This document shows positions 1,397 through 64,000 of a stretch of 64,000 nucleotides of DNA, one piece after another. Source of the stretch: Mustelus asterias. Lineage: Eukaryota. The translations under genes were made by a program, and so were the position numbers. How positions within the stretch are numbered: the first letter of the stretch is position 1; each line of letters starts with the position of its first letter. Location of the stretch: NCBI RefSeq assembly GCF_964213995.1, contig NC_135803.1, positions 92,628,001-92,692,000 on the forward strand, read 5' to 3'. The notes below the pieces were generated by a model. It was not told the DNA's origin. It worked only from the letters and a program-made list of their open reading frames with translations, and made no database searches.

Positions 1397-1656
1397 TGAT
1401 GTGGAGATGCCGGCGTTGGACTGGGGTAAACACAGTCAAGGTCTCACAACACCAGGTTAAAGTCCAACAGGTTTATTTGGTAGCAAAATCCACTAGTTTT
1501 CGGAGCGCTGCTCCTTCGCCAGATAAGTGGGAGTTATGCCCTGTTTGTGAACAGAACTCCCACTTACCTGACGAAGGAGCAGCGCTCAGAAAGCTAGTGG
1601 GTTTTGCTACCAAATAAACCTGTTGGACTTTAACCTGGTGTTGTGAGACTTCTTAC
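1397..1656. mobile_element. Fold-back Penelope-like element, family A, short copy with hammerhead motif in each arm
   Basis: Both arms match the termini of the 2-kb PLE at 61890-63900. Flanked by ctttgttgccctg (1386-1398) / ctttgttgtcctg (1656-1668). Confidence 0.9.
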
Positions 1657-1689
1657 TTTGTTGTCCTGGCCAATGCTCTGGTCAGAAGA

Positions 1690-2640
1690 AGATTGCAGAC
1701 AGATATAGATAGGTTGAGTGAGTGGGCAAAAATCTGGCAGATGAAGTATAATGTGAGAAAATGTGAACTTTGGGAGGAAGAATAAAAAAGCAGAGTATTA
1801 CTTATATGGAGAACAACTGCAGAATTCTGAGGTAGAGGGGAATCTGGGTGTTCTAGTGCATGAATCACAAAAAGTTAGTATCATAGAATCATAAAACCCA
1901 TACAGTGCAGAAGGAGGCCATTCGGCCCATCGAGTCTGCACCGACCACAATCCCATCCAGGCCCTATTCCCATAACCCCACACATTTACCCTGCTAATCC
2001 CCCTGACACTAGGGTCAATTTAGCATAGCCAATCAACCTAACCCGCACATCTTTGGACTGTGTGCAGCAAGTAATTAAAAAGGCTAATGCAATGCTGTCC
2101 TTTATGACCTGAGGAATTGAAAGTAAGAGTAAGGATGTTATGTTTCAGTGAGACCACATCTTGAATATTGTGTGCTGTTTTAGTCTCCTTATTTAAGGAA
2201 GAATGTAAATTGATACCTGAAGTGAGTGGGTTGTCTTATGAGGATAGGTTGAAGAGGCTGGGCTTGTTTCGATTAGAGTTTAGAAGAGTGAGGGATGACT
2301 TGATTGAAGTATATAAGATCCTGAATGGTTTTTGACAAGATGAACATGGAAAGGATATTTCCGCTTGTGGGTGAGTCCAGAAGAAGAGGACACTTTAAAA
2401 AAAATTAAGTGACAGCAATGAGGAGAATTGTTTCTCAGTGGGTTGTGTGACTTTGAAACTCTGCCTGAGAAGGCAGTGGTGGTGGGGTCATTAAATATTT
2501 GTTAGGAAAGGGAATCACAGGTTATTGGGAGTAGATAGGAATGCAGAACTCGAAAGGTAAACAGGTCAGCCATGATATCGAATGGCAGAGCAGGCTCGAG
2601 GGACCAACTAGCCTACTACTGCCCCAACTTTGTATTCTTG
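1690..2640 (+). mobile_element. Degenerate CR1/HER1 LINE 3' fragment, interrupted by a SINE
   Basis: Recognisable ORF2 3' motifs (gatatagataggttgagtgagtgggc, tatgaggataggttg, tttagaagagtgaggg) with many stops. Confidence 0.8.
1880..2062 (-). mobile_element. HE1-type V-SINE, 3' half
   Basis: Reverse complement of the CR1-derived tail (gactcgatgggccgaatggcctccttctgcactgta..ctatga) and the end of the V-domain. Confidence 0.9.
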
Positions 2641-3139
2641 TATGGTCCTGAGGCGGTGTGTGCAGTCTGACAAGGGCAGAGTTCTTTACCAATGGCTTTT
2701 CTGCACTAACGATGCTCACATTGTTTTCTCTTCACGCTCGGCTGCTCTTGTGACTCCATTATCCACCTTTCTATCCCTTGAACATGCCTCTTTGTCTCTA
2801 CTTGTGTCTTGGTCTAAGTGCTGGAGTTTGGTTATTATGTCTCCATTGGGCCACTTCCTTATTACCTTCTCTACCAGCTAATGGAAACAAACAGAAATGA
2901 TCTTTGTGGGAAGAAATAAAGGCATGCTTTATATTTTACATTCATGGGAAATTTTGACAAACAGTTGTAGAAGTGGCCTTTTTATTTATCCTTGCATTAA
3001 TGTGCAATGTAACCATAAAATGGCAACATTTTGGGTGAAGAAAGTTTTGATGAAAGAACCATTTTATGATAATACTTTGTGATTCAGAGTATCGCCCTAA
3101 TGTGCAAACTAGCTTTTTTTAAAATTCATAACTTCTCAA

Positions 3140-3157
3140 CTTAAATTTTGTTTCTAG
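3140..3157 (+). promoter_or_regulatory. Putative 3' splice acceptor for the ZBED-like coding exon
   Basis: Pyrimidine-rich cttaaattttgtttctAG|gca, 123 nt upstream of the ATG. A short uORF (ATG ATG TCT TTC TGA, 3212-3226) lies in the predicted 5'UTR. Confidence 0.6.
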
Positions 3158-3280
3158 GCAGCTGGGCTGTCTGGTCCAACCACAGCTGTAACTGGATTCC
3201 CTACCTGTGCGATGATGTCTTTCTGATCCTCTTGTGTGAAGCAGCCCAGAAAGAAGACACTGAGTTGCACATTAAAGGTA

Positions 3281-5254
3281 ATGGAAGGTGACAGTGACAT
3301 TGTACATTGTGGATCTTCATTCATCAAAACGGAAAGGCCTCAACTTGTGGAGAAGAACAATACCACGTCAGAAGTGTGGAGATACTTTGGCTTCCAGCCT
3401 GGTAGTGATGGTAGACCAGAAAACATTGAAACCCCAGTCTGCAAGATCTGTTTCCGTGTCATTCCAGCAAAGGCCTCAAACACGAGCAACCTTTATGCAC
3501 ATCTGAAATCTCAGCACCCTCATATTTATATAGAGGTGAAAGGCAAACCCAACCAGGCATCAACCATCCCAGCTTCATCTGGAGAGCCAAGCCGAGAGCA
3601 GAACAGCACCATGCGGGAGATCTTTCAGCGAAAAGATAAATTTGATTCCAAGCCCAGGGAGCACAGAGAGCTGACCAAAGCAGTGACATACTACGTCACC
3701 AAGGATAGGATTCCTCTGAGTACCATTTCCAAACCTGGCTTTCAGCACCTCTTGAACAAGTTCAACCCGAGGTATGAGCTGCCAAGCAAGAACTACTTTT
3801 CCAGAGTAGCAATTCCATCGCTTTATGCAGACGTTCGCAAGGTTGTTGAGAAAGAATTAAAGAGCGGTGATTGTTTTGCTGCAACTGTTGAAACATGGAC
3901 ATGTCGGAGCAATGAAATGTTCCTGACCTTTGGGGTTCAGTATGTGGACAGTGATTGGGTTCTCAAAAACCATTGCCTGCAGACTCAGTATCTGCCAGAT
4001 GAACACTCTGGTCAGAGTCTAAAGTGTGCCCTCCAAGATGTGCTGGAGGAGTGGGGACTGGACCCAACCAACCTTGTAGCCATCACTACTGACAATGGAC
4101 CTGCTATTAAACTTGCCTGTGAGCTGTTGGGCTGGAAAAGAATGAGCTGTTTCAGCCAGAATCTGCAATGTTCTCTCCAAAAGGGTCTTGAGGACTCTCG
4201 CATTGAACGAATCATTCAGCTGTGCCGTCAAATATTTTCTCAATTTTCACGAAGCTGGAGGAGGAAGCGGGATTTCTCTATAGCTCAGAGTCAGAAAGGC
4301 CTTCCAAGGAATTCACTGAAAGCAGATATTAACAACCACTGGGGGACCACTTTGGATATGTTGGAAAGGTTTTTTGAGCAGCAGGATGCTGTCAGAACTG
4401 TATTAGCTCATGACCATAAGATGTGTCGCCTTGTTCCAACGTGGCAGGACATTGATGTTCTTGAGTCAGTTATAAGTGTTTTGCGTCCTTTCCGTGAAAT
4501 GTCCGAAGCCCTGTCTTATGAAAAATTCATTTCCATTTCAGCAATAAACCCTCTTATAAAACATATATGCAACAATCTTGCAAGAGAAGAACAGGAGGAG
4601 TTAACTCTTAGTTTTCTAATGAGAATGAGAATCAAACGAGAGCTTGAAATGCGATATGGAGACCCAGACTTGGTCCATTTTCTGGAGAAAGTTACATTCA
4701 TTGATCCTCGGTTTGGTCCCACTTGCATAGACAATCTGGAAAATGTCCTGCAGCAAATTAAAGGAGAGGTACTTGCTGGAAACGTAGCTGAAGAATCATC
4801 ATTATTTCAAATTGACTTTGATGGATCAACCGTTTCTCCACTGAGCTCATGCAGCTGGTATGATCGAGATAGCCCAGGACCAAGTCAACCAAAGAAGGCC
4901 AAGCATGGAGGGGGACTTGCAAAGGTTTTTGGAAAGCAGAGTGGAGATGGAGCTGCAGACAAAATGGTGACGACTTCAGTTTCACTGCAAGAACAGCTTG
5001 ACCGAGAGTTGGATTTTTATTTCAAGGAGCCTAAGCTCTCCCTAGAGAGCTGTCCTCTTCAGTGGTGGAAAGCAACGCAGAATTGTCTGCCTTTGTTGGC
5101 AAAGCTAGCCAAAAAGTATCTCTGCATTTCTGCAATGAATGTTAATTCAGAAAGAGCGTTCAGCAATAGTAGTTTTGTACTTACCGAGTATCGAAGCAGC
5201 GTGAAACCCAAACATATGGACCAGCTGGTGTTCCTAGCTGAAAATCTCCCATGA
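3281..5254 (+). CDS. BED zinc-finger / hAT (Ac-family) transposase-derived protein, ZBED1-like, 657 aa; probably a domesticated host gene
   Basis: Uninterrupted ORF. BED finger SEVWRYFG..CKIC..NTSNLYAHLKSQH, hAT core (ITTDNG, PTWQDIDVLESV, FIDPRF), basic PKKAK, and C-terminal hATC dimerisation domain PLQWWK..LAKKYLCI..SERAFS..QLVFLAENL. The first ATG (3281) is in strong Kozak context gtaATGg; the ORF-track start at 3236 is a GTG. Confidence 0.9.
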   Translation: MEGDSDIVHCGSSFIKTERPQLVEKNNTTSEVWRYFGFQPGSDGRPENIETPVCKICFRVIPAKASNTSNLYAHLKSQHPHIYIEVKGKPNQASTIPASSGEPSREQNSTMREIFQRKDKFDSKPREHRELTKAVTYYVTKDRIPLSTISKPGFQHLLNKFNPRYELPSKNYFSRVAIPSLYADVRKVVEKELKSGDCFAATVETWTCRSNEMFLTFGVQYVDSDWVLKNHCLQTQYLPDEHSGQSLKCALQDVLEEWGLDPTNLVAITTDNGPAIKLACELLGWKRMSCFSQNLQCSLQKGLEDSRIERIIQLCRQIFSQFSRSWRRKRDFSIAQSQKGLPRNSLKADINNHWGTTLDMLERFFEQQDAVRTVLAHDHKMCRLVPTWQDIDVLESVISVLRPFREMSEALSYEKFISISAINPLIKHICNNLAREEQEELTLSFLMRMRIKRELEMRYGDPDLVHFLEKVTFIDPRFGPTCIDNLENVLQQIKGEVLAGNVAEESSLFQIDFDGSTVSPLSSCSWYDRDSPGPSQPKKAKHGGGLAKVFGKQSGDGAADKMVTTSVSLQEQLDRELDFYFKEPKLSLESCPLQWWKATQNCLPLLAKLAKKYLCISAMNVNSERAFSNSSFVLTEYRSSVKPKHMDQLVFLAENLP

Positions 5255-6228
5255 GGAAAGGCTGTTGAGATCTGTTTTAAAATTATAGAGCAGAACTGTG
5301 GCAAAAAGAATATGTTTTAAAGATCATTGAAAAATTAACTTTTTCTTGACCACCTTCAGGGTAGGTTTGAAAATGGTAGAGTGTAAGGTGGTGAACATGG
5401 GGTTGAACAGGAGTGAATCCATTTTGTCCTATCTACTTGTACAGTGGCTTGTTTGCTATTTCATGGTTCACCATGATCCATATAACTGAAATGTTCTTGC
5501 TGCTCTAGTTAGCAGGAGCTGCTTGCCCTTTCTTATCTTTCGGCCCCCTCCCTCCAGCTCAAGATTGATATCTCGTGTTTCTGTATTCTGCTTCATTAAG
5601 AACTGACAAAAGCTGCCAAGCTGAGATGTGAGCGACAAGCACCCCTGAGATATAACTAGCAGCCTCTGGTTTGGACATGCACATTGACCTGCTTGAACCA
5701 TCAGGTTGGCTCCAAGTCATAGCATCTCTGTTTTTATTCAGCTGGCCACCCAGTACATCAATCACACTGATAGAAACAAAAGTTGGCTTTTTTAAATAAT
5801 CTGCTATGTTTGCCCTTTCTGTCAATGCCTTGTGATCTGATCTGATGCATGCTCAAGTGGAAGTTCTATCAGTGTTTACAGGAATTAATCTGTGAAGTAA
5901 TTCCAGTTAATAATTTCAGTTTATGGGGAAGTGCACTTTGACAGTGCATCAGTACTACTGTATCAGGATTGGAGAACAGGCTATTTGGGGAGTTAGTACT
6001 GAATCGGTATCCCTACGAACCAAATAGATGCTTTGAACATGTTTGATACTGTAATTTAGCACTGCTTCAGCCATTAGAGACTTTCTATAGGCCATATGAT
6101 TGAGTAGGTGGAAGATGGGTGCTGGAGTATTTACATTTTTTCACACATGTTTGTGCATAAGTGTAATTGTCTGTATTTCTTGAAATGCCAACATAATGTA
6201 CATAACGTAAAAATTTATAATGGAATTC

Positions 6229-6320
6229 ATTAAAGTAAATCATTTATACAAACATTTATAATGGGAAAACAGTATGTAAACATTTCAGCTCATGGTTTGT
6301 TGATGAATCACACAAATAAA
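6229..6320 (+). terminator. Candidate polyadenylation signals ending a ~1 kb 3'UTR of the ZBED-like gene
   Basis: ATTAAA at 6229-6234 and AATAAA at 6315-6320, in an AT-rich stretch with no recognisable repeats after the stop codon. Confidence 0.4.
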
Positions 6321-6679
6321 AAAAGCATGTAATTTTTATCAGTAACTGAAATTTCTAATGTCCAAAATGTTTTAAAACATTTAAATGTTACTTTTTCACT
6401 GCTTAATTATTTAAATAAGATTATTTAAATTCATCAATTGAACTGTTTCTTGTGTCTTTTAGTACATTAGCATTTTCCTTGAAAACCTGAAAGTTAAAAC
6501 CTTAGGCTTGAATCTGATAGTTTGGCCTAAAGCAGTCAGGTGAAGGCAGATCCTTCACATAGGGCACAGGCAGTGTGTGTAGTTTCCTTGGATGCTTAAG
6601 TAACATTTAAGCTATTTAACTGAAATATATGGTCATCAACTACTTTGTTTGCATCAATGAGATGAATGTTGGTTCAGTC

Positions 6680-6862
6680 ACTGGGAGAACTACCCTATAT
6701 TTGAATAAGGCCATGGGATATCTTGCATCCACCAGAAACACCTGCCAGTGTCTCATCCAACATACAGCATTCGCTCAGTATTATGTTGGTTATGTGCTGA
6801 TGCCTGACTGGGGCTTGAACCACAACATGTTCACTCAGCAGTGAAACTACCACTGAGTCAAG
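6680..6862 (-). mobile_element. Old DeuSINE-like fragment
   Basis: Reverse complement resembles the Deu-domain segment (ggatgcaagatatcccatggcc..ttcaaa..gttctccc) also seen at 59490-59540. Confidence 0.45.
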
Positions 6863-7999
6863 TAATTAATCATATTGAAATTTTAATGCTGGCTATCTTG
6901 GACTCAGCCTCAGCAAACCTCTCCTTCAATTTGCAGTATACATTTTCTTTAGCCCGATATCTAGATAAATAATGGAGAGACCCAAGGACCACAACACACT
7001 ATTGCTGCAAACACCAGCAAATGGAATGTTTCAAATCCTGCATGTGATTCTCTTTAAAAGGTGCATTGATGATACTTTCTATAATCACATCACTCCTTCT
7101 CTAAGCAGGCTTAGTTTACTTCAACGAGCAGCTATTTGAAAGGTTAGGTCTGAGGTTGGTTTGAGTTATTTTATATCCCATCTGATTTTACTCTGCAGTG
7201 ATTACCAGAATATTCTCTGCACACAGTAATTTCATAAAGGATTATTGTTTTACTGACTCACATAATTGCCTCCACGCTATCCACTGGTTTTCTAACACCA
7301 AAGTGGGAATTGATTTCAGGGGTTGAGAGTGCCCAGACATATTTTGATCCTGAGAGATCCTTGTGAACTAGAATCAACAAGAGCGATCTTCCTGCACCCA
7401 CATACAACTTGGTCAATCAGAATTCCAATATCTGTAATTTGGATACCGTCATTTGATTTGCTTGAGTTTTCTGATGATTTTGCCTAATAACGGATTATAT
7501 TTATGCATGTCACTTCACATTGTCAAGATCTTGTTTATGACGGGAATGATTGTGAAATACTGAATGTGTTCAATGTGTTCCCCTCCTTGGGATTGTCATG
7601 GTCTGATTAATCGATTGGGTCATTTTCCTTATTGTTGTTGGCATCCCATGCTTACAAAAGCTGGAAGACTGATAATTTAGTGAAGAATATTGACACTGCC
7701 AAAGGCTCAGGTGTGTCTGGAATTTCCTTTTGGCCTGTAACTGAATTGAGAATGCTGTGTGATAGTCAGTTTTACACGTTAAAATATGTTTTTGTGCTCA
7801 CCTCAGATTGTACCAAAGGAAAAAGAGCCCTTGTAAATAGGGATGCTGGGGGAACTTTAACATTCTGCAGTGCCTGGAGTGGGGAGGGGTAAGAGAGGAC
7901 TAGAAGTCTAGGTTTCCCCTGCCTGTGGAGGTTTAATTCTACAGTGTGATTTTTCATCATTGATAGGTTGCTTACCAAGATGCTAGGACCACTGCTTTT

Positions 8000-10067: not shown

Positions 10068-10822
10068 TAACAGCAATATACTGTGCAGACGCTAGAAAGT
10101 CTGAAATATTAACAAATGTTGGAAAAACTCAGCAGGTGTGGCAGCATCTGTGGAGAGAGAAACAGTTAACATTTCAAGTCCAATATGATTTTTCTGTAGA
10201 GCTCTTTTGAAACAAGGAATTCAGTTCTGAAGAAGTCATATTGGACTTGAAACTTTAACTCTTTTTTTCTCTCCACAGATGCTTCCAGACCTACTAAGTT
10301 TTGTTAATTGGATCCAAGCCAGTTGGTGTAGCCGAAACCAAGATACCGAGCTTTTCCTCATTGAGAGAATTCATTGAATTGTTCAGTCTCCCACTCAACC
10401 CAGTGTCCCAGCTATCCCCTGTTTATACAGCTGAAAACAACCAGTAAATGAGAAAAAATACAGGGGTGACAGGCCCTGGTGGATCATCCCCTATTTATAC
10501 AATTTTAAATAAAACAAAAATATCAATAAATTAAACAAAAATGACAGGGGTGATGGTCCCTAGTGGGGAAGAACGTCAAAAAGAAACTCAATTAATTCAA
10601 ATTAAAATGTCATTCCAGGGGTGATGACGCCACTGTGGTGTCCACTGGTCATGGAAGGCCTGAAACGTGCCTTATTCCCTATTTATACATACTCAAAGAC
10701 AATTAATACCCCTCACCTGTTTCTTTTAGCCCTAACAATGTCATTGATATTAACAAACTGTAACAATGTCATTGACAAGAGATGAACAAGTTTTTCCAGC
10801 ACTTCCTGTTTTTATTTCCGGA
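10068..10822. mobile_element. Fold-back Penelope-like element, family B (hammerhead motif 10223-10260), split by a later insertion
   Basis: Inverted arms gcatctgtggagagagaaacagttaacatttcaagtccaatatga / tcatattggacttgaaactttaactc..ctctccacagatgc. The right arm resumes at 10791 (tttttccagcacttcctgtttttatttc). Confidence 0.75.
10303..10787 (-). mobile_element. Probable Tx1-clade LINE 3' fragment
   Basis: Minus strand 10597-10670 reads GTFQAFHDQWTPQWRHHPWNDILI*, resembling a frameshifted Tx1 ORF2 C-terminus (recognition from memory). Flanked by a 7-bp duplication aagtttt (10296-10302 / 10788-10794). Confidence 0.55.
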
Positions 10823-19509: not shown

Positions 19510-20860
19510 GACATCCTTGTTTTTGTATTCAAAGCCAAATATCCTATTGTCTTTTCTTCAGTGCTTTATCAACTTGTTCTACCATCTAAGCTTCTGAATG
19601 TGCAACCCCAGGTCTCTGTCCTTGTACACCCCAGTTCAAATCTAATGCTTTTAGATTATGCTGCTTTTGCATGCTGTTTCTCCCACATTGCATCACTTCA
19701 CATGTAGCCATGTTAAACTCCATCTGCCATGTGTGTCCATTTCTCCAATTTGTCTACAATCACCTGCTATCTTGTTCATTATTTACTACACTGCAAAGTT
19801 TTGTATTTACTGTAAACTTCAAAGTTGCACGACTCATATCCAAGTCCAGGTCATTTATATATAACAGGAAAAGCAATGATCCCTGGGGAACGTCACCGAA
19901 TACTTGCCACCACTCACATCCATTCACCAATACTCCCTGCCATCTATCTCTGGGCCAATTCTGAACCCATATTTCCATTGACCCTTCCATACCATGTGCC
20001 GGTATAATTTTTCTTTCAATGACAATGTAGTTTTCCCATATCTGATGTTAGGCTGATTGACCTGTAGTTACCCAGTTCATCTCTTTCTGAACAGGGGTGC
20101 AACATTAACAGTCCTCTAACATCAGCCCGAGATCCAAACAGGAATGAAAGATTATGGTCGGTGTCTGCAGCTCCACCAGTGCTTCCCTCAGTGAACTACG
20201 ATGCATCTCATATGGAGCGGGTCACTTGTTAGCTTTGGGAAATGTCAACCTATTTAGTACCTTCTTTCTATCTACATTCATTCTGTCCAATATCTTTAAT
20301 CCCCATTCTCTATGGCAACCTATTCATCCTGTCTTGTGAGAGTGTAAAGCACTTACTCAATACCTCAGTCATGCCTGTGCCTACTGTAGATTGCCTTTCT
20401 TGATCCTGATTGTCCCCATCATTCCTTTAACTATCCTTTTGATTTAAAAACATGGGCATTTCCTGACTTGTCTGCTGACCTTTTTCTCTCTTTGCCCTTC
20501 TTAATCCTTCAGTTTCCTTCTGCACTGTCTGCATTCTGCCTGTTTTGTGACACGATTTTTGTACTTGACATTTGTTATAAGCCTACCTTTTCTATTTTGT
20601 TTTAACCTCCAGTCCCTTTGTCACCCAAGAACTCTAGCTTTGGCTGCCCCATTCTTGCTTCTTACAGGAATATGTGTAGTTTGTACCTGCCTTATCTCGG
20701 CTGCTGGTCTGCTGTTTCTCATTCTGTGTTTCCAGCCCATCTGTGCCCGACCCCTTCTCCAATATCTGAAATTGGCTATCTCCCTGTTGGGTATTTTCAC
20801 TTTTGATTTTTCTTTGCTCTCCTGATCCCTCCCTGCCTCTCATCTGAGTTGAGATTATGA
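19510..20860 (-). mobile_element. Highly degenerate CR1 ORF2
   Basis: Minus-strand DVPQGSLLFLLYINDLD and KFTVNTKL remnants. Confidence 0.7.
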
Positions 20861-21435
20861 ATTTATCATGTGGCGAATCATATTGCTGCTTGTCTTACTG
20901 CTGTGATACAGGGCTTGTTTTAATTTTCTGTTTGACTGTCCACCCCACTTTTCCAGCATTGACACTGAAAATTTGACAGGCGTCTTATATTGGCCAGAGA
21001 TCCTTTCTCATCAGGATGTAATCTCTAATTTTATTACATTTATTGAGATCTAGAATGACTGCTGGCATCTGTTTTCTTCTGAATTGTCACTAAATGTTGT
21101 GATCTGTATTGCATCAACATCTTACTATCTTTTAAAAGTGAAATCCATGGTGGGCATTAACTTTCTCATTGGTCTGAATGTCAGAGTGTATGTTTATCTC
21201 TCTGTTGCTGAAACATATCTGGTCACCCGGAGGGAGAGAAACAGCAGACCAGCAGCGGAGATAAGGCAGGTACAAACTACACATATTCCTGTAAGAAGCA
21301 AGAATGGGGCAGCCAAAGCGAGAGTTCTTGGGTGACAAAGGGACTGGAAGTTAAAATAAAATAGAAAAGGTAGGCTGAGGGCAAATGTCAAGTACAAAAT
21401 CGTGTCACAAAACAGGCAGAATGCAGACAGTGCAG
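20520..21435. repeat. 200-bp inverted duplication (20520-20720 / 21236-21435)
   Basis: Manual alignment gives 8 substitutions and 1 indel (~95% identity), with a 515-bp spacer. Confidence 0.95.
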
Positions 21436-21589
21436 GGGGGGAGACTGAAGACACCGATTTTAACACTGAATGCCTCAATTTGGATAAAATGCCCCCCTTT
21501 TTAAAGCAAGTCCTTCTCTCGGCTATATTAATCGTTGACCCATGTTAGGTGTTCCTGCGCCATACCTGTCGCAAAGGTGAGGGGCGACT

Positions 21590-22147
21590 GGCTCCCTGAC
21601 CTCTGCCGGCCGCCTCCCTGGCCTCTGCCCGCCGGCTCCCTGACCTCTGCCGGCCGCCTCCCTGACCTCTGCCAGCCGCCTCCCTGACCTCTGCCCGCCG
21701 GCTCCCTGACCTCTGCCGGCCGCCTCCCTGACCTCTGCCGGCCGCCTCCCTGGCCTCTGCCCGCCGGCTCCCTGACCTCTGCCGGCCGCCTCCCTGACCT
21801 CTGCCCGCCGGCCCCCTGACCTCTGCCGGCCGGCTCCCTGACCTCTGCCCGCCGGCTCCCTGACCTCTGCCGGCCGCCTCCCTGGCCTCTGCCGGCCGCC
21901 TCCCTGGCCTCTGCCGGCCGGCTCCCTGGCCTCTGCCGGCCGGCTCCCTGACCTCTGCCGGCCGGCTCCCTGACCTCTGCCGGCCGACTCCCTGACCTCT
22001 GCCGGCCGGCTCCCTGACCTCTGCCGGCCGGCTCCCTGACCTCTGCCGGCCGCCTCCCTGACCTCTGCCGGCCGCCTCCCTGACCTCTGCCGGCCGCCTC
22101 CCTGACCTCTGCCGGCCGCCTCCCTGGCCGGCTCCCTGGCCTCTGCC
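21590..22147. repeat. 22-bp GC-rich minisatellite, ~25 units
   Basis: Unit CTCCCTGACCTCTGCCGGCCG(C/G) with few variants. Confidence 0.97.
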
Positions 22148-22747
22148 AGTGTTGTTCATGAACCCATCAGAAGACCTATACTTGGGATATCGGTTGCTCT
22201 TTCCTTTGAAAGATGTACCACTGGCAGTTTCAAATTCCTAAATTAAAGCTTTAATTGATGTAGATTGAGAATTTAATTAAAATGTTATGAGGCTATTGTT
22301 TCCTTTAAATTGCTTTTTAAAGTCATTAGTCATTTTTCACCATTTTATTAATGCTTAATGTATCACCAAAGAGATTGCTTGGATTGTTTCTCCTGTGACT
22401 AGGATGCCTGCGGATCGGACAACTAGAAATCTCTTAAATCTCTTGGGTAATGCTGTTCGAGGCTTGACAACCTCTGTGGGCGATATCTCTAAATCCTGTG
22501 TCTGCTCGCACTGTGTATTCAATGTAATAATTATATAAAGTTGAGATTCAGATTTAAAGTGTGATTTCCATTATCAAAGTCTTTCATTTGATTTTGACAC
22601 GAGTTCCGGAATGACTGGCAGCGGTTGTTTACTCTGAACTACCATGGAAATTTATGTGTATTACTTCAAAACCATGTTTCCTTTTAAAAAGTTTGACTAA
22701 GAACCTTTTGTGTATCTATAAAGTGTAGAACACAGATTTGCCTTTTG

Positions 22748-40644: not shown

Positions 40645-41445
40645 GGCCGACTTTCGAGTAATGCAAAAAAAACACACACAAGGACACAGAAAATAAATAA
40701 AACTTTACCAAAACTTGGCCAAGTTTTCTTTAAAAAAGGGAAAAGTCAGAAAATGTATTCACGGATTGTCCGAATACTTGTTCATTTTCACATGTAACGT
40801 TTGCAATTTCACTTTCCACAGTGACTGCACGCACTCACTGAAGCAGTCATTTTGCAGCTGTGGTTGAATGATTCCCTTTTCTATTGAAGATAGTGGTGTT
40901 GAATTGGAAGCCTCCAGTAAGGACGCATGATTTGCAACAAGCCTTCCAGTAGCCTTTCAAACCAAAACCAAGTCTCAGCTTTGTTGAGCGAGGTTTCAGA
41001 CAAAGAGGGGGTAAAGCTGTTGTCCTTACTATCTTTATGGCATTCTGTTTGTTGGTTCAAATCCAGTATATTTCACACCCAAGAGCTTAGTCATGTGACC
41101 TCTCTCTGGTTTTAATCTGGGTTGATATTAATCATTGTCTCTGAGACCTTCGTCGATCCTGTTGTTTCCACAAATATAACTTAGTAGCTGTGGAGGCCAG
41201 AATCCTTTATTTAGCACAATATGTTATTTTCAGAAAGTTCAATATATATATCCAGCAGATATTACAAAATTAATATTCTATACAGCATATCTTCCTTTCA
41301 TTTTCATCTAGAACTATTTAACAATGCAGTTGGCAAAGTAAAGAATGACTGGCATACTGGCATTCAAATAATTGTGTTATTTTCATAAACTAGTGGCAAA
41401 AAGAGATGCAAGTCTTTTGAGGTGCACATAAATAATTTGTGGGAG

Positions 41446-42044
41446 TGTGCCTGTGTGGTATTGGGGAGCGAAGGTGTAGTCGGAATGTGCCTGTGTGGTA
41501 TTGGGGAGCGAAGGTGTAGTCGGAATGTGCCTGTGTGGTATTGGGGAGTGAAGGTGTAGTCGGAATGTGCCTGTGTGGTATTGGGGAGTGAAGGTGTAGT
41601 CGGAATGTGCCTGTGTGGTATTGGGGAGTGAAGGTGTAGTCGGAATGTGCCTGTGTGGTATTGGGGAGCGAAGGTGTAGTCGGAATGTGCCTGTGTGGTA
41701 TTGGGGAGTGAAGGTGTAGTCGGAATGTGCCTGTGTGGTATTGGGGAGCGAAGGTGTAGTCGGAATGTGCCTGTGTGGTATTGGGGCGCGAAGGTGTAGT
41801 AGGAATGTGCCTGTGTGGTATTGGGGAGTGTAGGTGTAGTCGGAATGTGCCTGTGTGGTATTGGGGAGTGAAGGTGTAGTCGGAATGTGCCTGTGTGGTA
41901 TTGGGGCGCGAAGGTGTAGTAGGAATGTGCCTGTGTGGTATTGGGGAGTGTAGGTGTAGTCGGAATGTGCCTGTGTGGTATTGGGGAGTGTAGGTGTAGT
42001 CGGAATGTGCCTGTGTGGTATTGGGAAGTGAAGGTGTAGTCGGA
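41446..42044. repeat. 40-bp minisatellite, ~15 near-perfect units
   Basis: Unit TTGGGGAGYGAAGGTGTAGTCGGAATGTGCCTGTGTGGTA, head-to-tail with no spacers. Confidence 0.98.
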
Positions 42045-43079
42045 CTATCCAAAATATGGTAACCCTCAAGAGTTGGAAAAGGATCAGAATGCATGGAAAA
42101 GATAGAACTACCAGTAGCTAGCTCCATGCCTGCACCTTGCACTATTGCGGAAGTAGGTCTAACGGTACAAGAGAATCCACCGAATGAATTACTCTCGTTA
42201 ACAATTTTTAATGTGGAAGAACAAAAACAATAGTGAGGAATTCTGGTGAACCATGAGGTCAGAAGAAACAGGAAGAAAGAATAACCTCTTTGAAGAGATA
42301 CTGATCATGTAAATGGGGACTATATTTTAATGACTGATTTCAACTAATTTAACACTGGGTATTAGTTAGATAAGGAGCCTGAGTTAGAACTACATGCTTC
42401 ATAACAGGATGATCTGTCAGGAAAACCATGAGATGAGAGTTGTGGTACAAGAATGAGAGTTGTGGCATTCCTTGGGTGATAGTGATCAGACACTTGAGTT
42501 TGATAAATGATCCGGAGTTTGACACAGGCAAGGGTCAGTTTCTAATTTAAAAAAAACACTTTTCAAAGATATTGGAAAAGGGATGAGTCTGAATTCATGG
42601 GAAGAATAAGAAATAATCTGAAAGTAAGTTGTGAGCACTTGTTCCAGGAGTGATGTGAAGCAAGGTCTGGTGCTGATGTTGGGGTCCCTATTGTTTCCAA
42701 TTTAGAACAATGATTTGGATTCAGAAATTGAATGAAAAGTTATGGTTGTCACTGAAAAACACTAATTTAAAGGGGCAGATGGGGAAGTTGAGTCTAAGTA
42801 GAGAACCAAGAACCTATAAAGGTAGCTGAATAAAATTGATGAGCAGGCAAACACTGGTAAATGAAATCCAGCTCAAAGTGAGGGGTATTGCAGGCTGGAA
42901 GATAAAAGAGCTGGCTGGAATACAGGCAGTATGAATAGTATTAAATAAACCAAGGGCATAGTTAAAATTGTGTGTTTAACACGCCACCCATACAGTGAAC
43001 TCATTGTGCTACTGAAATAAATAATGTAATTTAAATGGTGTAATATATCTCTAAATTACTAGTTATGTTGAAATTATAC

Positions 43080-43905
43080 AGCCAGGATTTCCCCGATATC
43101 GGCAACGGCCAATGGCGATGGGAAAAGCAGCATTGAAGATGCCGACAGCAATGGCGGCTTCACCTCCATATAATCTGGGATTGTGAAAAAAAAATCTTCA
43201 AGGTTCAGCACCCAGGACATGTCACTGGTCAGGTGGCCTCTTATTCGCCTGGCCTGCCAGCAATTTATGATGTGGAAATGCCGGCGTTGGACTGGGGTAA
43301 ACACAGTAAGAAGTCTCACAACACCAGGTTAAAGTCCAACAGGTTTATTTGGTAGCAAAAGCCACTTGCTTTTTTCCGAAAGCTAGTGGCTTTTGCTACC
43401 AAATAAACCTGTTGGACTTTAACCTGGTGTTGTCAGACTTCTTATTACCAGCAATTTAGTCAGACGAGGATTGGGGTGCAATTTTTAAAGGCAGCCCTAG
43501 TGCAGAGAGAGCAAAGCAGTTCACCCTGGAGCACCACCTCAGGGCACTGCACCTGGCACTGCCTGGGCATTACTGTGGACAGTGCCTGGGGTAGTGGCCG
43601 GGCATGACACCCCCCCGATGCACGCCTTGGGAGACCAGTCATGCTGTTCTGCTGTCGTGCCAATGTGGAGGGTTTCTCTGATTGGGAGAGGAGGGGGGGG
43701 CGGGGGGGTGATTCAGGGGCCTGCTAGTGATATGGTAATGTATTCGAATGATGCTCCCGATGTTCGGGCCCTGTCACTGAGAGGGGGAGGAGACAATCGC
43801 GCTGCACATTTCCACCGACTTAAAATGCAATTTTGCAGTTCTTGTGATATTTCCGTTTCCATCGCCGAACCTGCCTGACACAAACAGGAGTGGAAAATCC
43901 CAGCC
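43080..43905. mobile_element. Harbinger-like MITE hosting a Penelope insertion
   Basis: Right end ggaaaatcccagcc matches 38030-38041; the left end agccaggatttcc is degenerate. No clear TSD. Confidence 0.55.
43268..43447. mobile_element. Fold-back Penelope-like element, family A, shortest copy
   Basis: Near-perfect palindrome of the PLE terminus with an exact 11-bp TSD ccagcaattta (43257-43267 / 43448-43458). Confidence 0.93.
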
Positions 43906-56546: not shown

Positions 56547-57130
56547 TTGATTTGATTTGATTTGATTTATTATTGTCACATGTATTAGCATACAGTGAAA
56601 AGTATTGTTTCTTGCGTGCTATACAGACAAAGCATACTGTTCATAGAGAAGGAAATGAGAGTCTGCAGAATGTAGTGTTACAGTCATAGCTAGGGTGTAG
56701 AGAAAGATCAACTTAATGTGAGATAGGTCCATTCAAAAGTCTGATGGTAGCAAGGAAGAAGCTGTTCTTGAGTCAGTTGGTAAATGTCCTCAGACTTTTG
56801 TGTCTTTTTCCTGACGGAAGAAGGTGGAAAAGAGTATGTGTGGGGTGCGTGGGGTCCTTGATTATGCTGGCTGCTTTTCTGAGGCAGCGGGAATTGTAGA
56901 CTGAGTCAATGGATGGGAGGCTGGTTTGAGTGATGGACTGGACTTCGTTCACAACCCTTTGTGGTTTGTTGCGGTCTTGGACAGACCAGGAGTCATACCA
57001 AGCTGTGATAAAACCAGAAATAATGCTTTCTATGGTGCATCTATAAAAGTTGGTGAGAGCCGTAGCGGACACGCCAAATTTCCTTAGTCTCCTGAGAAAG
57101 TAGAGGCATTGGTGAGCTTTATTAACTATA
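56547..57130 (-). mobile_element. Rex1/Babar-clade LINE 3' fragment
   Basis: LTNFYRCTIESIISGFITAWY..IIKDPTHP..LPSGKR, with a (TTTGA)n tail on the plus strand. Confidence 0.88.
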
Positions 57131-57159
57131 TTGTGTCAGTCTCTTGTCCCTGATTTCAT

Positions 57160-57679
57160 CATCAGGTGAGTGGGAGTTCTGTTCACAAACCGGGCATATA
57201 AAGACACAAACTCAATTTACAAAATAATGGTTGGAATGCGAGTCTTTACAGGTAATCAAGTCTTAAAGGGACTGTGTTATAGGTTGACCTGAGTGGGTTC
57301 GTGATCTGTCATCCTCCAAGTGGAGAGGATCTCCAAGAAGATCACGCATATCGACACAGACATCAAGTTTCTACAAAGATGCAAGAAAGCAGACAAGATA
57401 CCGAAAGGACTACAGATCACGAACCCACTCAGGTCAACCTATAACACAGACCCTTTAAGACTTGATTACCTGTAAAGACTCGCATTCTAACCATTATTTT
57501 GTCAGTTGAGTTTGTGTCTTTTATGCCCTGTTTGTGAACTGAACTCCCACTTACCTGATGAAGGGGCAGCGCTCCGAAAGCTAGTGGCTTGTGCTACCAA
57601 ATAAACCTGTTGGATTTTAACCTGGTGTTGTGAGACTTCTTACTGTGCTTACCCCAGTCCAACGCCGGCATCTCTACAT
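57160..57679 (+). mobile_element. Fold-back Penelope-like family A copy, internally deleted (ORF N-terminal piece fused to 3' end)
   Basis: Arms 57160-57309 / 57412-57560. 57311-57451 encodes ILQVERISKKITHIDTDIKFLQRCKKADKIPKGLQITNPLRSTYNTD. TSD cctgatttcat (57149-57159) / cctgacttcat (57680-57690). Confidence 0.88.
57551..57587 (+). ncRNA. Minimal type I hammerhead ribozyme motif (best-preserved copy)
   Basis: uuac-CUGAUGA-A-GGGGC-agc-GCUCC-GAA-AGCU-A-gugg: intact core, 5-bp helix II, palindromic AGCU helix III and short helix I. Predicted cleavage after CUA (57583). Confidence 0.75.
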
Positions 57680-58479
57680 CCTGACTTCATGGGTCAGGAG
57701 TGTCGCTTTTAAATCACTTCCATTTTTATCTAAAACACTGGTGGAGCTTCAAAATCTCCATGTTACAGAAGGTACTGTTCACTGTGGAAAAGGAAATGAT
57801 TGAGAGATTCCATCGAGTATCCAGACATCAGCTCAATAACATTTAGAAACAACACTGCAGTGGTCTGGGGTATTATGGAATGATCAGCAAGGTTAAATCC
57901 TGGTTTGTTCTGGTTGCGTGTGTTTAGGCGCTCAGACGGTTGGCAGTGCAATATGTGCACTGAGAGCTGCAGCAGAAACTCTTGTGATTTGGACATTTAC
58001 ATTTCTGAATATACGATTGAAGACTACAGGAACTGAAAATATCATTTTGCCATCATTGTATGGCTCTGTGTTCTAACCAAATAATGTGAAGTCAACTTGC
58101 CCAATCTCGACTGAGAAACATCCAAAGATTCTCTCCACTGACTAACATTCCGAGCATTTGCAGTAAACACTGAAACTTAACACAGAAAGGGACAATCCCT
58201 ATCAGAGATGATCCCAAATCGTCTTCACCAATAAATATTCAAATCATTGCAAGGCTTGACAGCATTGACCCTCCTTGCAAACCTGAATTACTTTTCCTCA
58301 CATGACTGGTGACCTTGAAATATCTTGGACAATTTGCTCTCAGCAGAAGCTCTCAGCTGCTGTGTCCTCAGGAACTTTATTGCCTCTGAGGCAGGTGGAG
58401 CAACAGTTAATTCTCTTCATAACACTCACCAACATGATTAATATTCCTGGTGCCAAATCAATAGCAACCCCAGAGCTTG

Positions 58480-58647
58480 TAAAAGCAAAATACTGCAGAT
58501 GCTGGAATATGAAACAAAAACAGAAAATGCTGGAAAATCTCAGCAGATCTGACAGTATCAGCGGAGACAGAATAGAGCCAACCTTTCACGTCTAGATGAT
58601 CCTTCGTCAGAGCAGCTGAGATTTTCCAGCATTTTCTGTTTTTGTCT
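58480..58647. mobile_element. Fold-back Penelope-like element, family B (hammerhead motif on minus strand 58577-58613)
   Basis: Inverted acaaaaacagaaaatgctggaaaatctcagc / gctgagattttccagcattttctgtttttgt. Minus strand reads gct-CTGACGA-aggatcatctagacgt-GAAA-ggttggc. Confidence 0.78.
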
Positions 58648-58774
58648 CTCCTATGTAAACTGGGCTGGTTACCATGCTATCAGGATCAATTTTCACAGAG
58701 GAATTGCTGCTTCAGTGTCCCTCTCACAGAAAGAGCTTCACTATTGGGACCTTTTCATAGAGCAAGAGGCAAGT

Positions 58775-59277
58775 TGTGATTGGAGGGGATACAGTGTGTG
58801 TGTGAGGGTGGGGAGTTGGATAGGGTACAGTGTGTATGTGAGGATGAGGATTGGATGGGGTACAGTGTGTGACAGTCAGCGTGTGGGGGTTGTGTGGAGT
58901 TGGATGGGGTGCAGTGTGTGTGTGAGAGGGTGGGGAGTTGGATGGGGTACTTTATGTGTATGTGAGGTGGGGAGTTGGCTGGGGTACAGTGTGTGTGTGA
59001 GGTGGGGAGTTAGATGGAGTTGCGTGTGTGTGTGAGAGGGTGGGGAGTTAGATGGGGTACGGTGTGTGTGGGGCGGGAGGGTGTTGATTGGGGTACAATG
59101 TATGTGTGAGAGGGGGGATTGGATGGGGTACAGTGTGTGTGAGAGGGTGGGTAGTTGGATGGGATGCAGTGTGTGAGAGGGTGACAGGTTGGATAGGGTA
59201 CAGTGTGTGTATGAGGTTAGGGAGTTAGAAAGGGTACAGTGTGTGTGAGAGGGTGGGGAGTTGGATGGGATGCAGTG
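58775..59277. repeat. Degenerate ~38-40 bp G/T-rich minisatellite
   Basis: Consensus gtgtgtgtgagagggtggggagttggatggggtaca, about 13 units. Confidence 0.92.
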
Positions 59278-59394
59278 CCCTGGGATCAATTAACCACTCC
59301 CCTCAGTATCGCCTTGCTGAATAAGATTAGATTCTACCCACTTGCTGACTTCCCCTTCCCTCCTCGTCGCAAGGTCAGTGGATCAATTATTACT

Positions 59395-59712
59395 AGAGTT
59401 CAGTACGAAATCGAGGCTGACCTTTTACTGAGTGCTGCACTGTCAGAAATGTGTTAGAATGGGATGTTCAGTGAAGACCCATCTCTCTTTGCAACTGGAT
59501 GTAAAAGTTTCCATGGCACCTTTTTGAAGAGCTGTGTCTTTCTCAGCAGTTATCCCTCAAACCACTACAAAATCAATTATCTGGTCATTATCACATTGCT
59601 CTCTGTGGTTCCTTGATGTAGGTAAATTTACTGCTGCGTTTCCTACTTTACAACAGTGATTACACTTATTGACAGTACAATGCTTTAGAATATCCTGAGG
59701 TTATGAAAGGCA
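59395..59712 (+). mobile_element. DeuSINE-like element with L2-type tail
   Basis: ctggatgtaaaagtttccatggcacc..ttatccctcaa..attatctggtcattatcacattgct..gtttcctactttacaacagtga..tcctgaggttatgaaaggca. Confidence 0.65.
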
Positions 59713-62228
59713 CCGGGTGGAATTATCCCCCCAAAAATTCTAAGTGCCGAATTTGCATAAAAACTGGAGAAAATCCCGCTGGTTTTTCTGAGCGGGATTT
59801 TCAAAATGGCCGGGTCATCAAAGTTGTATTGGGGGAACATGTGGTGAACAGTGGCCACAATTCCGTAAGGTTTCGGATACTGATGGAATAGGACGAGTGT
59901 TGTCGTAGGATTAAAGTGCTAAATTGGGGGAAGGCTAACTACAACCAGATTAGGCAGGATTTGGAGGCTCTTGTTTGGGAGAAGCTGTTTGAGGGGAAAT
60001 CCACATTTGGCATGTGAGAGTCTTTTAAGGAGCAGTTGATCGGAGTGCAGGACAGGTATGTGCCTATGAAAAGGAAGGACAGGAAAGGCAGGCTTCAGGA
60101 ACCGTAGATGACTAGGAATATTGTGAGTTTAGTCAGACAAAAAAAGGATGCATACATGAGGTTTAGGCAATTAAAAACAGATGAAGCATTTGAAGAATAC
60201 AGGGAAAGTAGAAAAGAGCTCAAACATGGAGTTAGGAGGGCAAAAGGAGGTCATGAAATGTCCTTTGCAGACAGGATTAAGGAGAATCCCAAGACATTTT
60301 ATACATATATTAGGAACAAGAGAGTAGCTAGAAAAAGAGTTGGTCAACTTAAGAACAAAGAAGGGTACTTATGTGTAGAGCCAAAGGAAATGGGTGAGAT
60401 CCTTAATGAGTAATTTGCATCAGTATTCACAAAGGAGAGGTACATGCCAATTGATGGTGTCTCAGAGGGGTGTGTAAACCCTTTAGAACAAGTCATCATT
60501 ACGAGGGACGAAGTGTTAGGTGAATTAAAAAGCATTAAGGTAGACAAATTCCCAGGGCCAGATGGCATCTATCCCAGATTACTGAGGGAGACGAGAGATG
60601 AAATTGCTGGGCCTCTAACAGAAATCTTTGTTTCTTCGTTGGCCACTGGTGAGGTCCCAGAGGATTGGAGGATAGCCAATGTTGTCCCGTTATTTAAGAA
60701 GGATAGCAAGGATAACCCGGGTAATTATAGGCCAGTGAGCTTGACGTCAGTGATAGTGAAATTGTTGGAGAAGATTTTTAGGAATAGGATCTATACACAT
60801 TTGGAACAGAATGGTCTTGTTAGCAACATACAGCATGAATTTGTACGAGGAAAGTCATGTCTCATTTAATTTAATTGAGTTTTTTGAGGAGGTGACAAAA
60901 ATGATTGACGAGAGAAGGGCTGTGGATGTGGTCTACATGGACTTTAGTAAAGCATTTGACAAAGTCCCTCATGGCAGGCTGGTGCAAAAGATTAAATCAC
61001 ATGGTATCGGGTGAACTAGATAGATGGATTCAGAACTGGTTTGGCCGTAGAAGATAGAGGGTAACGGTGGAAGGGTGTTTTTCTGAATGGAGGTCTGTAA
61101 CTAGTGGTGTTCCGCAGGGATTAGTGCTGCTGTATTACAAGCAACACCTCTGTTGTTTGTAATATATATAAATGACTTGGAAGAAAACGTAGCTGGTCTA
61201 ATTAGCAAGTTTGCAGATGATACTCAGAATGGTGGAGTTGTGGATAGTGATGAAGATTGTCAGAGAATACAGCAGGATATAGGTAGGCTGGAAAATTGAG
61301 TGGAGAAATGGCAGATGGAATTTAATCTGGACAAATGCGAGGTGATGCATTTTAGTAGATCCAATTCAGGTGGGAGCTACAAAATAAATGGCAGAACCAT
61401 CAAGAGCATAGCCACATGGAGTACAGGTCCACAGATCCTTAAAAGTGGCAGCACAGGTGGAAAAGGTGGGAATAAAACATATGTTTGCCTTCATCAGACG
61501 TGGCATCAAGTATAAAAGTTGGCAAATTATGTTACAGTTATATAAAACGTTGGTTAGGCCACATTTGGAATACTGCGTCCAATTCTGGTCATCGCACTAC
61601 CAGAAGGATGTAGAGGCTTTGGAGAGAGTGCAGAAAAGGTTTACCAGGATGTTGCCTGGTATGGAGGGTATTAGCTACGAGGAGACATTGAATAAACTGG
61701 GATTGTTCTCCCTGGAAAGACGGAGGCTGAGGGGGCGACCTGATAGAAGTTTATAAAATTATGAGGGGTATAATAACAGGTGAACAGTTGGAATATTTTT
61801 CCCAGGGCAGAAATGACAATTACAAGAGGGCACAAGTTTAAGGTGAGGGGGGAAAGGTTCAGTGGAGATGTGCGGGGGACGTTTTTTTATGATGTGGAGA
61901 TGCTGGCGTTGGACTGGGGTAAACACAGTAAGAAGTCTCACAACACCAGGTTAAAGTCCAACAGGTTTATTTGGTAGCAAAAGCCACTAGCTTTCGGAGC
62001 GCTGCTCATTCGTCAGGTAAGTGGGAGTTCTGTTCACAAACAGGGCATATAAAGACACAAACTCAATTTACAAAATAATGGTTGGAATGCGAGTCTTTAC
62101 AGGTAATCAAGTCTTAAAGGTACAGACAATGTGAGTGGAGAGAGGGTTAAGCATAGGTTAAAGAGATGTGTATTGTCTCCAGCCGGGACACTTAGTGAGA
62201 TTTTGCAAGCCCAGGCAAGTCGTGGGGG

Positions 62229-62791
62229 TTACAGATAGTGTGACAGGAACCCAAGATCCCGGTTGAGGCCGTCCTCATGTGTGTGGAACTTGGCTATCAG
62301 TTTCTGCTCAGCGACTCTGCGTTGTCGTGCGTCGTGAAGGCCGCCTTGGAGAACGCTTACCCGAAGATCAGAGGCCGAATGCCCGTAACCACTGAAGTGT
62401 TCCCCAACAGGAAGAGAACACTCTTGCCTGGTGATTGTCGAGCGGTGTTCATTCATCCGTTGTCATAGCATCTGCATGGTCTCCCCAATGTACCATGCCT
62501 CGGGACATCCTTTCCTGCAGCAAATCAGGTAGACAACGTTGGCCGAGTTACAAGAGTATGTACCGTGTAACTGGTGGATGGTGTTCTCATGTGAGATGAT
62601 GGCATCCGTGTCGATGATCCGGCACGTCTTGCAGAGGTTGCTGTGGCAGGGTTGTGTGGTGTCGTGGTCACTGTTCTCCTGAAGGCTGGGTAGTTTGCTG
62701 CGGACAATGGTCTGTTTGAGGTTGTGCGGTTGTTTGAAGGCAAGAAGTAGGGGTGTGGGGATAGCCTTGGCGAGATGTCCGTCTTCATCAA
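62229..62791 (-). pseudogene. Inverted second copy of the Penelope GIY-YIG domain
   Basis: NVVYLICC..WYIGET..(stop)..RMNEH..RRVAEQKLI..GLNRD; retains the catalytic E/N region lost from the plus-strand arm. Confidence 0.9.
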
Positions 62792-62792
62792 C

Positions 62793-63563
62793 GCCATCCC
62801 CTACAGACAAGCCCTCCGTATACACAGGATCTGTTCAGATGAGGAGGATCGCAACAGACACCTCCAGATGCTGAAAGATGCCCTCATAAGAACAGGATAT
62901 GGCGCTCGACTCATCGATCGACAGTTCCGACGCGCCACAGCGAAAAACCGCACCGACCTCCTCAGAAGACAAACACGGGACACGGCGGACAGAGTACCCT
63001 TCGTCGTCCAGTACTTCCCCGGAGCAGAGAAGCTACGACATCTTGTCCGGAGTCTTCAACATGTCATTGATGAAGATGAACATCTCGCCAAGGCCATCCC
63101 CACACCCCCACTTCTTGCCTTCAAACAACCGCACAACCTCAAACAGACCATTGTCCGCAGCAAACTACCCAGCCTTCAGGAGAACAGTGACCACGACACC
63201 ACACAACCCTGCCACAGCAACCTCTGCAAGACGTGCCGGATCATCGACACGGATGCCATCATCTCACGTGTGAACACCATCCACCAGGTACACGGTACAT
63301 ACTCTTGCAACTCGGCCAATGTTGTCGACCTGCTACGCTGCAGGAAAGGATGTCCCGAGGCATGGTACATTGGGGAGACCATGCAGATGCAACGACAACG
63401 GATGAATAAACACCTCTCGGCAATCACCAGACAAGAGTGTTTTCTTCCTGTTGGGGAACACTTCAGCTGTCACGGGCATTCGGCCTCTGATCTTCGGGTA
63501 AGCGTTCTCCAAGGCAGCCTTCACGACGCAGAGCCAAGTTCCGCTCACATGAGGACGGCCTAA
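62793..63563 (+). pseudogene. Penelope ORF C-terminus: RT thumb, Cys-rich linker, GIY-YIG endonuclease
   Basis: AIPYRQALRIHRICS..RTGY; PCHSNLCKTC; NVV(D)LLRC..C..WYIGET..RMN.H..VGEHF. 5'-truncated, with a deletion near 63530. Confidence 0.92.
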
Positions 63564-64000
63564 ACCGGGATCTTGGGTTCATGTCACACTATCTGTAACC
63601 CCCACGACTTGCCTGGGCTTGCAAAATCTCACTAAGTGTCCCGGCTGGAGACAATACACATCTCTTTAACCTGTGCTTAATGCTCTCTCCACTCACATTG
63701 TCTGTACCTTTAAGACTTGATTACCTGTAAAGACTCGCATTCCAACCATTATTTTGTAAATTGAGTTTGTGTCTTTATATGCCCTGTTTGTGAACAGAAC
63801 TCCCACTCACCTGACAAAGGAGCAGCGCTCCGAAAGCTAGTGGCTTTTGCTACCAAATAAACCTGTTGGACTTTAACCTGGTGTTGTGAGACTTCTTACA
63901 AAGTTTTTTTACACAGAGGGTGGTGGGGGCCTGGAATGCTCTGCCAAGTGAGGTGGTTGAGGCAGATACGGTAGTGACATTTAAGAGTTATCTGGATAGA

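Follow-up and report, generated by a model that had tools for sequence, protein, structure and literature searches.

Four insertions of one Penelope-like retroelement lie in a 64,000-nucleotide stretch of the Mustelus asterias genome (NCBI RefSeq assembly GCF_964213995.1, contig NC_135803.1, forward strand positions 92,628,001 to 92,692,000; hereafter the window). Each is folded back on itself and has two unequal ends, and together they raise the question of how a retroelement is copied into such a form. In clusters sampled from the genome, one arm of the fold-back typically ended at a position named site A and the other at a second position, site B, 38 nt away on the element RNA, and the target was found to be symmetric. 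From the sequences, we consider it reasonably probable that a dimer seated on one RNA at A and B cuts both strands of this target and primes on both overhangs, and that host repair then unites the resulting cDNAs in head-to-head orientation.

Fold-back insertions in the window

Element coordinates were numbered with the last base of a 38-nt tail (site B) as 0 and upstream positions as negative, which places site A near −38. Copies 1–4 are all head-to-head inverted duplications of the element 3′ end and are located where a first-pass annotation of the window had put them; the positions, arms and pairs of target site duplications (TSDs; 11–13 bp) that it had described were all recovered. Their parts, including those derived from the open reading frame (ORF), are as follows.

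Copy 1, left TSD: 1386..1398, + strand; 13 nt, final 2 nt common to the element end
Copy 1, tailed arm: 1397..1538, − strand; tail 1397–1434; element coordinates about −140..0
Copy 1, tail-less arm: 1535..1656, + strand; −159..−38; hammerhead-like core at 1568
Copy 1, right TSD: 1656..1668, + strand; 1 mismatch; overlaps the element end
Copy 2, left TSD: 43257..43267, + strand; 11 nt, exact
Copy 2, tailed arm: 43268..43372, − strand; −104..0
Copy 2, tail-less arm: 43375..43444, + strand; −108..−39, then 3 nt of filler
Copy 2, right TSD: 43448..43458, + strand; 11 nt, exact
Copy 3, left TSD: 57149..57159, + strand; 11 nt, 1 mismatch
Copy 3, tail-less arm: 57159..57315, − strand; trimmed to about −120; ORF 5′ piece +122..+165 fused to −233
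Copy 3, tailed arm: 57314..57680, + strand; ORF 5′ piece +30..+167 (57314–57451) fused to 3′ end −230..−1; hammerhead-like core at 57555
Copy 3, right TSD: 57680..57690, + strand; 11 nt, 1 mismatch to the left copy
Copy 4, left TSD: 61879..61889, + strand; 11 nt, 1 mismatch, 9 exact
Copy 4, tailed arm: 61890..62797, − strand; −904..0; tail 61890–61927; 3′ untranslated region; hammerhead-like core at 62016
Copy 4, coding part of the tailed arm: within 61890..62797, − strand; ORF end with linker CX4CxxC and GIY-YIG/CCHH endonuclease
Copy 4, tail-less arm: 62793..63899, + strand; −1172..−38; ORF fragment 62793–63530; 31-nt deletion near 63530
Copy 4, right TSD: 63901..63911, + strand; 1 mismatch to the left copy

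The tail is present on exactly one arm in copies 1, 2, 3 and 4, in agreement with the annotation, which had also seen the other arm stop at almost the same base in three copies: it ends at −38 to −39 in copies 1, 2 and 4, copy 3 being the exception (about −120, within the ribozyme core). The arms of copy 2 are identical at 64/66 positions and the outer parts of the copy 4 arms at 358/368. The statement that only the centre of the palindrome varies held for the centres, which do vary, but was too narrow, as the tail-less arm of copy 4 has a 31-nt deletion, sequence from the 5′ end of the ORF is present in each arm of copy 3 and junction positions are spread. The copy 4 ORF fragment (62793–63530) is 60% identical to an 881-aa reverse transcriptase (RT)-endonuclease protein.

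One tailed and one tail-less arm

Arm pairs were counted genome-wide using two-part patterns together with samples. For the census, twelve 100-kb stretches (1.2 Mb) were picked without regard to the element, giving 68 clusters, 67 of them not at an edge. The 34 inverted clusters comprised 31 tail/tail-less, 0 tail/tail, 0 tail-less/tail-less and 3 aberrant cases. When clusters were chosen on the element core alone, a set that excluded core-core places found only in tail-selected loci plus one listed place, 32/34 were tail/tail-less and each of the other 2 consisted of two neighbouring asymmetric insertions. Genome-wide, the tail/tail pattern occurred at 192 loci versus 23,884 for a tail plus an opposite core, and 15 tail/tail matches that were inspected were mostly complex arrays. 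The tail-less/tail-less pattern was found 243 times (control 86) versus 4,119 for tail-less/tail (control 10); many of the listed tail-less/tail-less matches were tailed arms with a 1-nt indel, and a rough upper bound is ~3%. Pairs of type A/A and B/B thus amount to at most a few percent. Single arms in the census ended at A in 15 cases and at B in 14; since the two sites are used equally, independent site choice would yield ~50% like pairs.

The genome-wide and census pair counts therefore agree on two defined RNA positions, one at each target end, as the first-pass annotation had supposed. It had also looked to a genome-wide tally of orientation and arm ends; in the clusters sampled here the ends do group at two positions, and single-armed copies are numerous in the census (29/67).

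Target site and junctions

To define the target, 238 clusters were reduced to 118 simple two-piece tail/tail-less copies and one duplicate was removed, leaving 117. TSDs were scored in 97/117 of these two-armed copies versus 0/117 shuffled flank pairs, with a mode of 12–13 nt. The target reads (C)TG-N16/17-CA(G) and is symmetric around the 12–13 bp TSD (flank frequencies: T−4 0.71, G−3 0.67, C+2 0.59, A+3 0.61, G+4 0.54). Both half-sites were present in 83/97 TSD copies versus a background of 11.7%, with a spacer of 16 or 17 nt in 64/83, and single-armed TSD copies (n = 19) had the same motif as two-armed copies. Genome-wide, there were 36,681 matches with CTG spaced from the tail end as this target predicts, versus 13,071 in a control window of equal size (2.8×).

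Junctions were spread over about −42..−30 for tail-less arms and −4..+8 for tailed arms. Microhomology of at least 2 nt to the RNA was present at 44% of site A and 48% of site B junctions versus 19% and 18% in simulations, and 1–4 nt of microhomology was more frequent than chance at both. Flanks of this symmetry would be expected if each strand were nicked 2 nt 5′ of CAG. Priming on opposite target strands, which the annotation had put forward without having seen the symmetric target, is thus supported by that target and is still reached by inference.

It is very improbable that all combinations of ends are formed and that A/A and B/B palindromes are later removed or reshaped by selection, deletion or gene conversion. 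Perfect palindromes are unstable, and a few copies with nearly identical arms and private variants look as conversion would make them, but A/B copies, although palindromes of the same length, survive by the tens of thousands (31,331 short core-core loci genome-wide), and the intact TSDs of the 97 copies abut both ends.

Templates of the two arms

The junction in copy 3, which fuses ORF position +167 to −230, was searched as an exact 24-mer and found twice in 3.68 Gb, once per arm (a mutated source copy would be missed). The main subfamilies were never mixed within one copy, and rare alleles were common to both arms in 50/181 cases versus 14/176 for comparison with the nearest other copy. Arm 5′ ends were coupled, lying within 10 nt of each other in 13/29 copies (2.1 expected); for ends away from both RNA landmarks, 15/29 were within 5 nt (3.3 expected), and among long copies in the set obtained with the tail query the ends were coupled in 7/10. 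Both arms likely share one RNA template.

An alternative that we hold to be unlikely is that two RNAs are used, one per subunit, by a structurally asymmetric dimer (or by sequential nicks) in which one subunit can start at site A alone and its partner at site B alone. This would account equally well for the pairing of A with B and for the symmetric target, would make strand displacement unnecessary, and would fit both the weak coupling of long arms and the finding that an arm usually resembles its partner no more than it does the nearest other copy; the unique copy 3 junction in both arms, the coinciding arm ends (15/29) and the shared rare alleles would, however, need later copying from arm to arm.

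Arm extents and centres

Of the two arms, the tail-less one had the greater 5′ extent in 43 copies, the tailed one in 21; where the arms differed by >50 nt (33 copies), the tail-less arm was longer in 25, including copy 4, and the tailed arm in 8. The furthest 5′ points of short arms formed peaks at −130..−147 and −90..−104. The first matches a TATA-like box located 30 nt before an initiator (Inr)-like site in two subfamilies and absent in the third, and the second matches a predicted hammerhead cut at −97. At the centres, 37/117 copies had at least 2 nt of microhomology and 34/117 had at least 5 nt of filler, often templated, while some joins were blunt; 53/117 centres were near-symmetric (within 10 nt).

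Self-priming or endonuclease resolution has been proposed for inverted insertions of this kind (PMC3846280, PMC8557442). On that account, a single priming event is followed by fold-back of the self-primed cDNA, and the tail results from endonuclease resolution or an early stop of the second strand; for this family we judge it quite unlikely. Fold-back would yield identical arms, shared junctions and the near-symmetric centres, and the centres with microhomology are also in its favor. A tailed cDNA that folds back must nevertheless leave the tailed arm furthest 5′, so the more frequent 5′ reach of the tail-less arm (25 of 33) counts against simple fold-back, and a tail-less cDNA could not supply the tail. 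Tail-less single-armed copies with TSDs also exist (8/19), and both the fillers of at least 5 nt and the presence of the same half-site at both ends speak against it. Fold-back may still contribute to repair once twin priming has taken place.

Copy sizes were continuous from 0.1 to >3 kb and centres differed between copies (117 copies). Two insertions, L254 (C1:1265494) and L265 (C1:2389436), are 1.1 Mb apart and have one common non-templated centre with different TSDs; this centre occurs only twice in the genome, and the hairpin was re-copied or converted once. The copies C5:62558 and L228 have an identical centre at the predicted ribozyme cut.

Miniature inverted-repeat transposable elements (MITEs) of DNA transposons are short and ORF-less, with terminal inverted repeats, a TSD and very high copy number. 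The M. asterias hairpins share their shortness, lack of an ORF, inverted ends, TSDs and abundance, and differ in their unequal ends, variable centres and sizes and retroelement origin. That the short copies are MITEs or non-autonomous hairpins moving as a unit is scarcely credible: the two shared centres are what such movement would give, but that of L254 and L265 is found twice only, other centres differ, sizes are continuous, the ends are unequal by 38 nt and the arms derive from the 3′ terminus of an element encoding RT and endonuclease. Because centres and sizes vary among the 117 copies, with no large uniform group built on one internal sequence, the short copies are not MITEs and the centre is made anew at each insertion, as the first-pass annotation had maintained in writing that they mimic MITEs. 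Tens of thousands of these hairpins risk being annotated as MITEs or DNA transposons.

In four complex copies (L244, L233, L245 and L243), the cDNA path leaps from −97, −133, −153 or −49 into the ORF start (+40..+79), as if the RT had left the RNA 5′ end and re-entered downstream. Two apparently single-armed copies, L213:1488 and L075:8270, have short matches in their 5′ filler, 11 nt from the tail end in one and 6 nt similar to the site-A end in the other, which may be remnants of a second cDNA. L234 has a TSD copy at site A inside its arm, followed by the remaining tail and the TSD again, which suggests two priming steps at one target end.

Copy number and insertion forms

An exact 27-mer of the element occurred 178,956 times in the genome, and extrapolation from the 68 clusters in 1.2 Mb gives ~200,000 insertions. 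The 67 census clusters consisted of 31 tail/tail-less palindromes, 3 aberrant inverted copies, 15 single tail-less arms, 14 single tailed arms, 2 fragments and 2 complex copies. TSDs were found in 24/29 simple two-armed and 13/27 simple single-armed census copies, so that palindromes made up 24/37 of the simple TSD-bounded clusters; true single-armed insertions with TSDs exist for both end types. The palindrome is the commonest single product, accounting for roughly half of the insertions overall and some two thirds of the clean ones. The annotation had called it the standard integration product, which is right in that no other form is as common, but it is neither standard nor the only form (31/67), given the single-armed TSD copies.

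Identity of the element

In L063, a near full-length genomic copy, the order is pseudo-long terminal repeat (pLTR), tail, ATG, ORF, pLTR, with a unit of ~3 kb (pLTR 4250–4614, tail to 4652, then ATG and ORF, second pLTR to 7608). The tail is the 38 nt immediately before the start codon and equals the sequence after the 5′ pLTR, giving a partial tandem; site B is the A of the start codon. ORF pieces of this copy, which is broken by a stop and frameshifts, contain KSADKGG (DKG motif) and RYIDD and match Pfam RVT_1 (E = 1e-9). A homologue, P0002, contains all Penelope-like element (PLE) protein parts in 881 aa and is 49–60% identical, the endonuclease region being 60% identical to its C-terminus. 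The C-terminal GIY-YIG endonuclease with CCHH was read by eye in window frames from VVYLICCRKGCPEAWYIGET and GEHF motifs; a Pfam profile search gave no GIY-YIG match for the element ORF pieces or P0002, and a PDB search with P0002 gave no match. A linker zinc finger, CX4CxxC (PCHSNLCKTC), lies between RT and endonuclease.

The pLTR contains a type I hammerhead-like motif with a CUGANGA..GAAA core. Pairing is 93% in its stems I and II, and 4/14 copies carry a compensatory C-G/U-A pair (structure hand-chosen, rows related); an Rfam scan for hammerhead gave no match, and an RNAalifold consensus of the leader had little covariation outside the ribozyme. The family has at least 3 subfamilies.

By these sequence features, the element is an endonuclease-containing (EN+) PLE with a single ORF and a PLE-type RT. 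The linker CX2-5CxxC is a criterion of clade, lacking in Penelope/Poseidon and present in Neptune/Nematis (PMC8557442). An assignment to Poseidon was rejected on this criterion, since the linker finger rules out Penelope/Poseidon and indicates Neptune or Nematis. Features shared with Neptune/Nematis are the C-terminal GIY-YIG with CCHH, the linker CX2-5CxxC, the DKG motif and a hammerhead in the pLTR (PMC8557442).

Proposed mechanism of integration

Under the preferred reading of one RNA copied by a dimer, the dimeric RT-endonuclease would bind the symmetric target and each subunit would nick 2 nt 5′ of CAG, the staggered nicks leaving 12–13 nt 3′ overhangs as primers for target-primed reverse transcription (TPRT). 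One subunit would be placed at site A and the other at site B of the same RNA, 38 nt apart, so that the B-primed cDNA would have to displace the A-primed cDNA. Both cDNAs being antisense, they could not anneal to each other and would be united head to head by host end-joining, in some cases with loop trimming or snap-back; loss of one cDNA would leave a single-armed copy. Short stubs would likely arise when the element mRNA is primed within its 5′ leader and the RT runs off, either at the predicted RNA start (TATA/Inr, about −132) or where the hammerhead is predicted to cut (−97).

Several observations weigh against this reading. About 4–5 of the 15 inspected tail/tail matches are true, simple tail/tail insertions, L057 is tail-less/tail-less without a TSD, and L047 and L252 have half tails. 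Among long unselected copies, only 1/12 has arm 5′ ends within 40 nt, and an arm is nearer its partner than the nearest other copy in only 24/106 copies, equally near in 31 and further in 51. Shared variants and the copy 3 junction could stem from arm-to-arm copying, gene conversion or two RNAs of one source locus. The bias toward longer tail-less arms loses significance when the census is taken by itself (11 versus 5, p = 0.21) or the set selected for length is left out (13 versus 8 long, 19 versus 12 short), and stalling of tailed arms at site A is only hinted at, by 3/29 census copies. The enzyme of Anolis carolinensis Poseidon (PAc) prefers ATT and primes without homology (PMC11167929), whereas CTG/CAG and 1–4 nt of microhomology are found here.

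As a tentative extension, PLEs may integrate by obligate twin priming, in which a symmetric dimer at a CTG-N2-[12-13]-N2-CAG site makes a staggered double-strand cut and one RNA is copied twice. If this is true, the tail, the inverted arm and the pLTR geometry would all come from one complex, in a mode of retrotransposition distinct from TPRT by long interspersed nuclear elements (LINEs) and recorded in ~100,000 insertions of one genome.

Comparison with known systems

In L1 twin priming, a single RNA is primed from both strands of the target and joining by microhomology produces an inversion; its arms are non-overlapping and its second priming site falls at random. The M. asterias arms, in contrast, both contain the same 3′ end and use two fixed sites.

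The layout of PLE pLTRs in direct or inverted orientation with a short tail, which the first-pass annotation took as established, is indeed published (PMC3846280, PMC8557442). Insertions of EN+ PLEs with an inverted 5′-truncated copy and a 30–40 bp tail were described for Adineta vaga Penelope (PMC3846280; overview in PMC8557442), and an inverted layout with a tail also appears in PMC8969392. The A. vaga element shares with the M. asterias family an inverted pLTR beside a direct one, a tail often at one end only, a TSD, 5′ truncation and partial tandems (compare L063). It differs in that its tail is called optional and its TSD is 8–10 bp (PMC3846280), versus a near-strict single tail, a TSD of 12–13 bp and a symmetric target here.

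The annotation's idea of two start sites has an in vitro precedent in PAc, with two internal RT starts, nicking and extension of both strands and a predicted dimer (PMC11167929). Shared features are the two internal starts bounding a tail, cutting and extension of both strands, the predicted dimer and a hammerhead upstream of the starts. The PAc starts lie inside the ORF (about +111–118), whereas site B of the M. asterias family is at the start codon, and Poseidon is without the linker zinc finger that this family has. The accessible text of PMC11167929 gives no account of inverted copies or of the pairing of one start site with each strand, and that of bioRxiv 10.64898/2026.07.22.740005 leaves target symmetry and the A/B rule unaddressed.

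For this family, the insertion shape is thus already known, and no description of the symmetric CTG/CAG target or of the rule of one A and one B end was found in the literature searched (older subscription papers and Repbase/Dfam were outside reach). The origin of inverted and tailed PLE insertions is called open in PMC8557442 and PMC11167929. The quantitative rules (one A and one B end, symmetric target, 12–13 nt stagger, one template) make this mechanism directly testable: being measured, they specify a substrate that could be taken straight into an in vitro assay. For genome writing, too, an RT that nicks both strands and has a sequence preference is of interest.

Other repeats in the window

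A second family, unrelated to the first, is represented by older fold-back copies at 10075–10302 and 58480–58648. This family has a hammerhead-like motif (10228–10254) and a one-sided tail of ~30–33 nt; across the DNA stretches examined, there were 18 tail/tail-less and 1 tail/tail copies and 6 TSDs only (10–16 nt), without CTG/CAG. An inverted repeat unrelated to the Penelope-like family spans 20507–21450, with 216-nt arms (93.5%) and a 515-nt spacer, and adjoins a 22-bp tandem array (21480–22227). Further tandem arrays are at 41319–42164 (40 bp) and 58780–59280 (degenerate GT-rich unit), and many repeats resembling LINEs and short interspersed nuclear elements (SINEs) are present elsewhere in the window.

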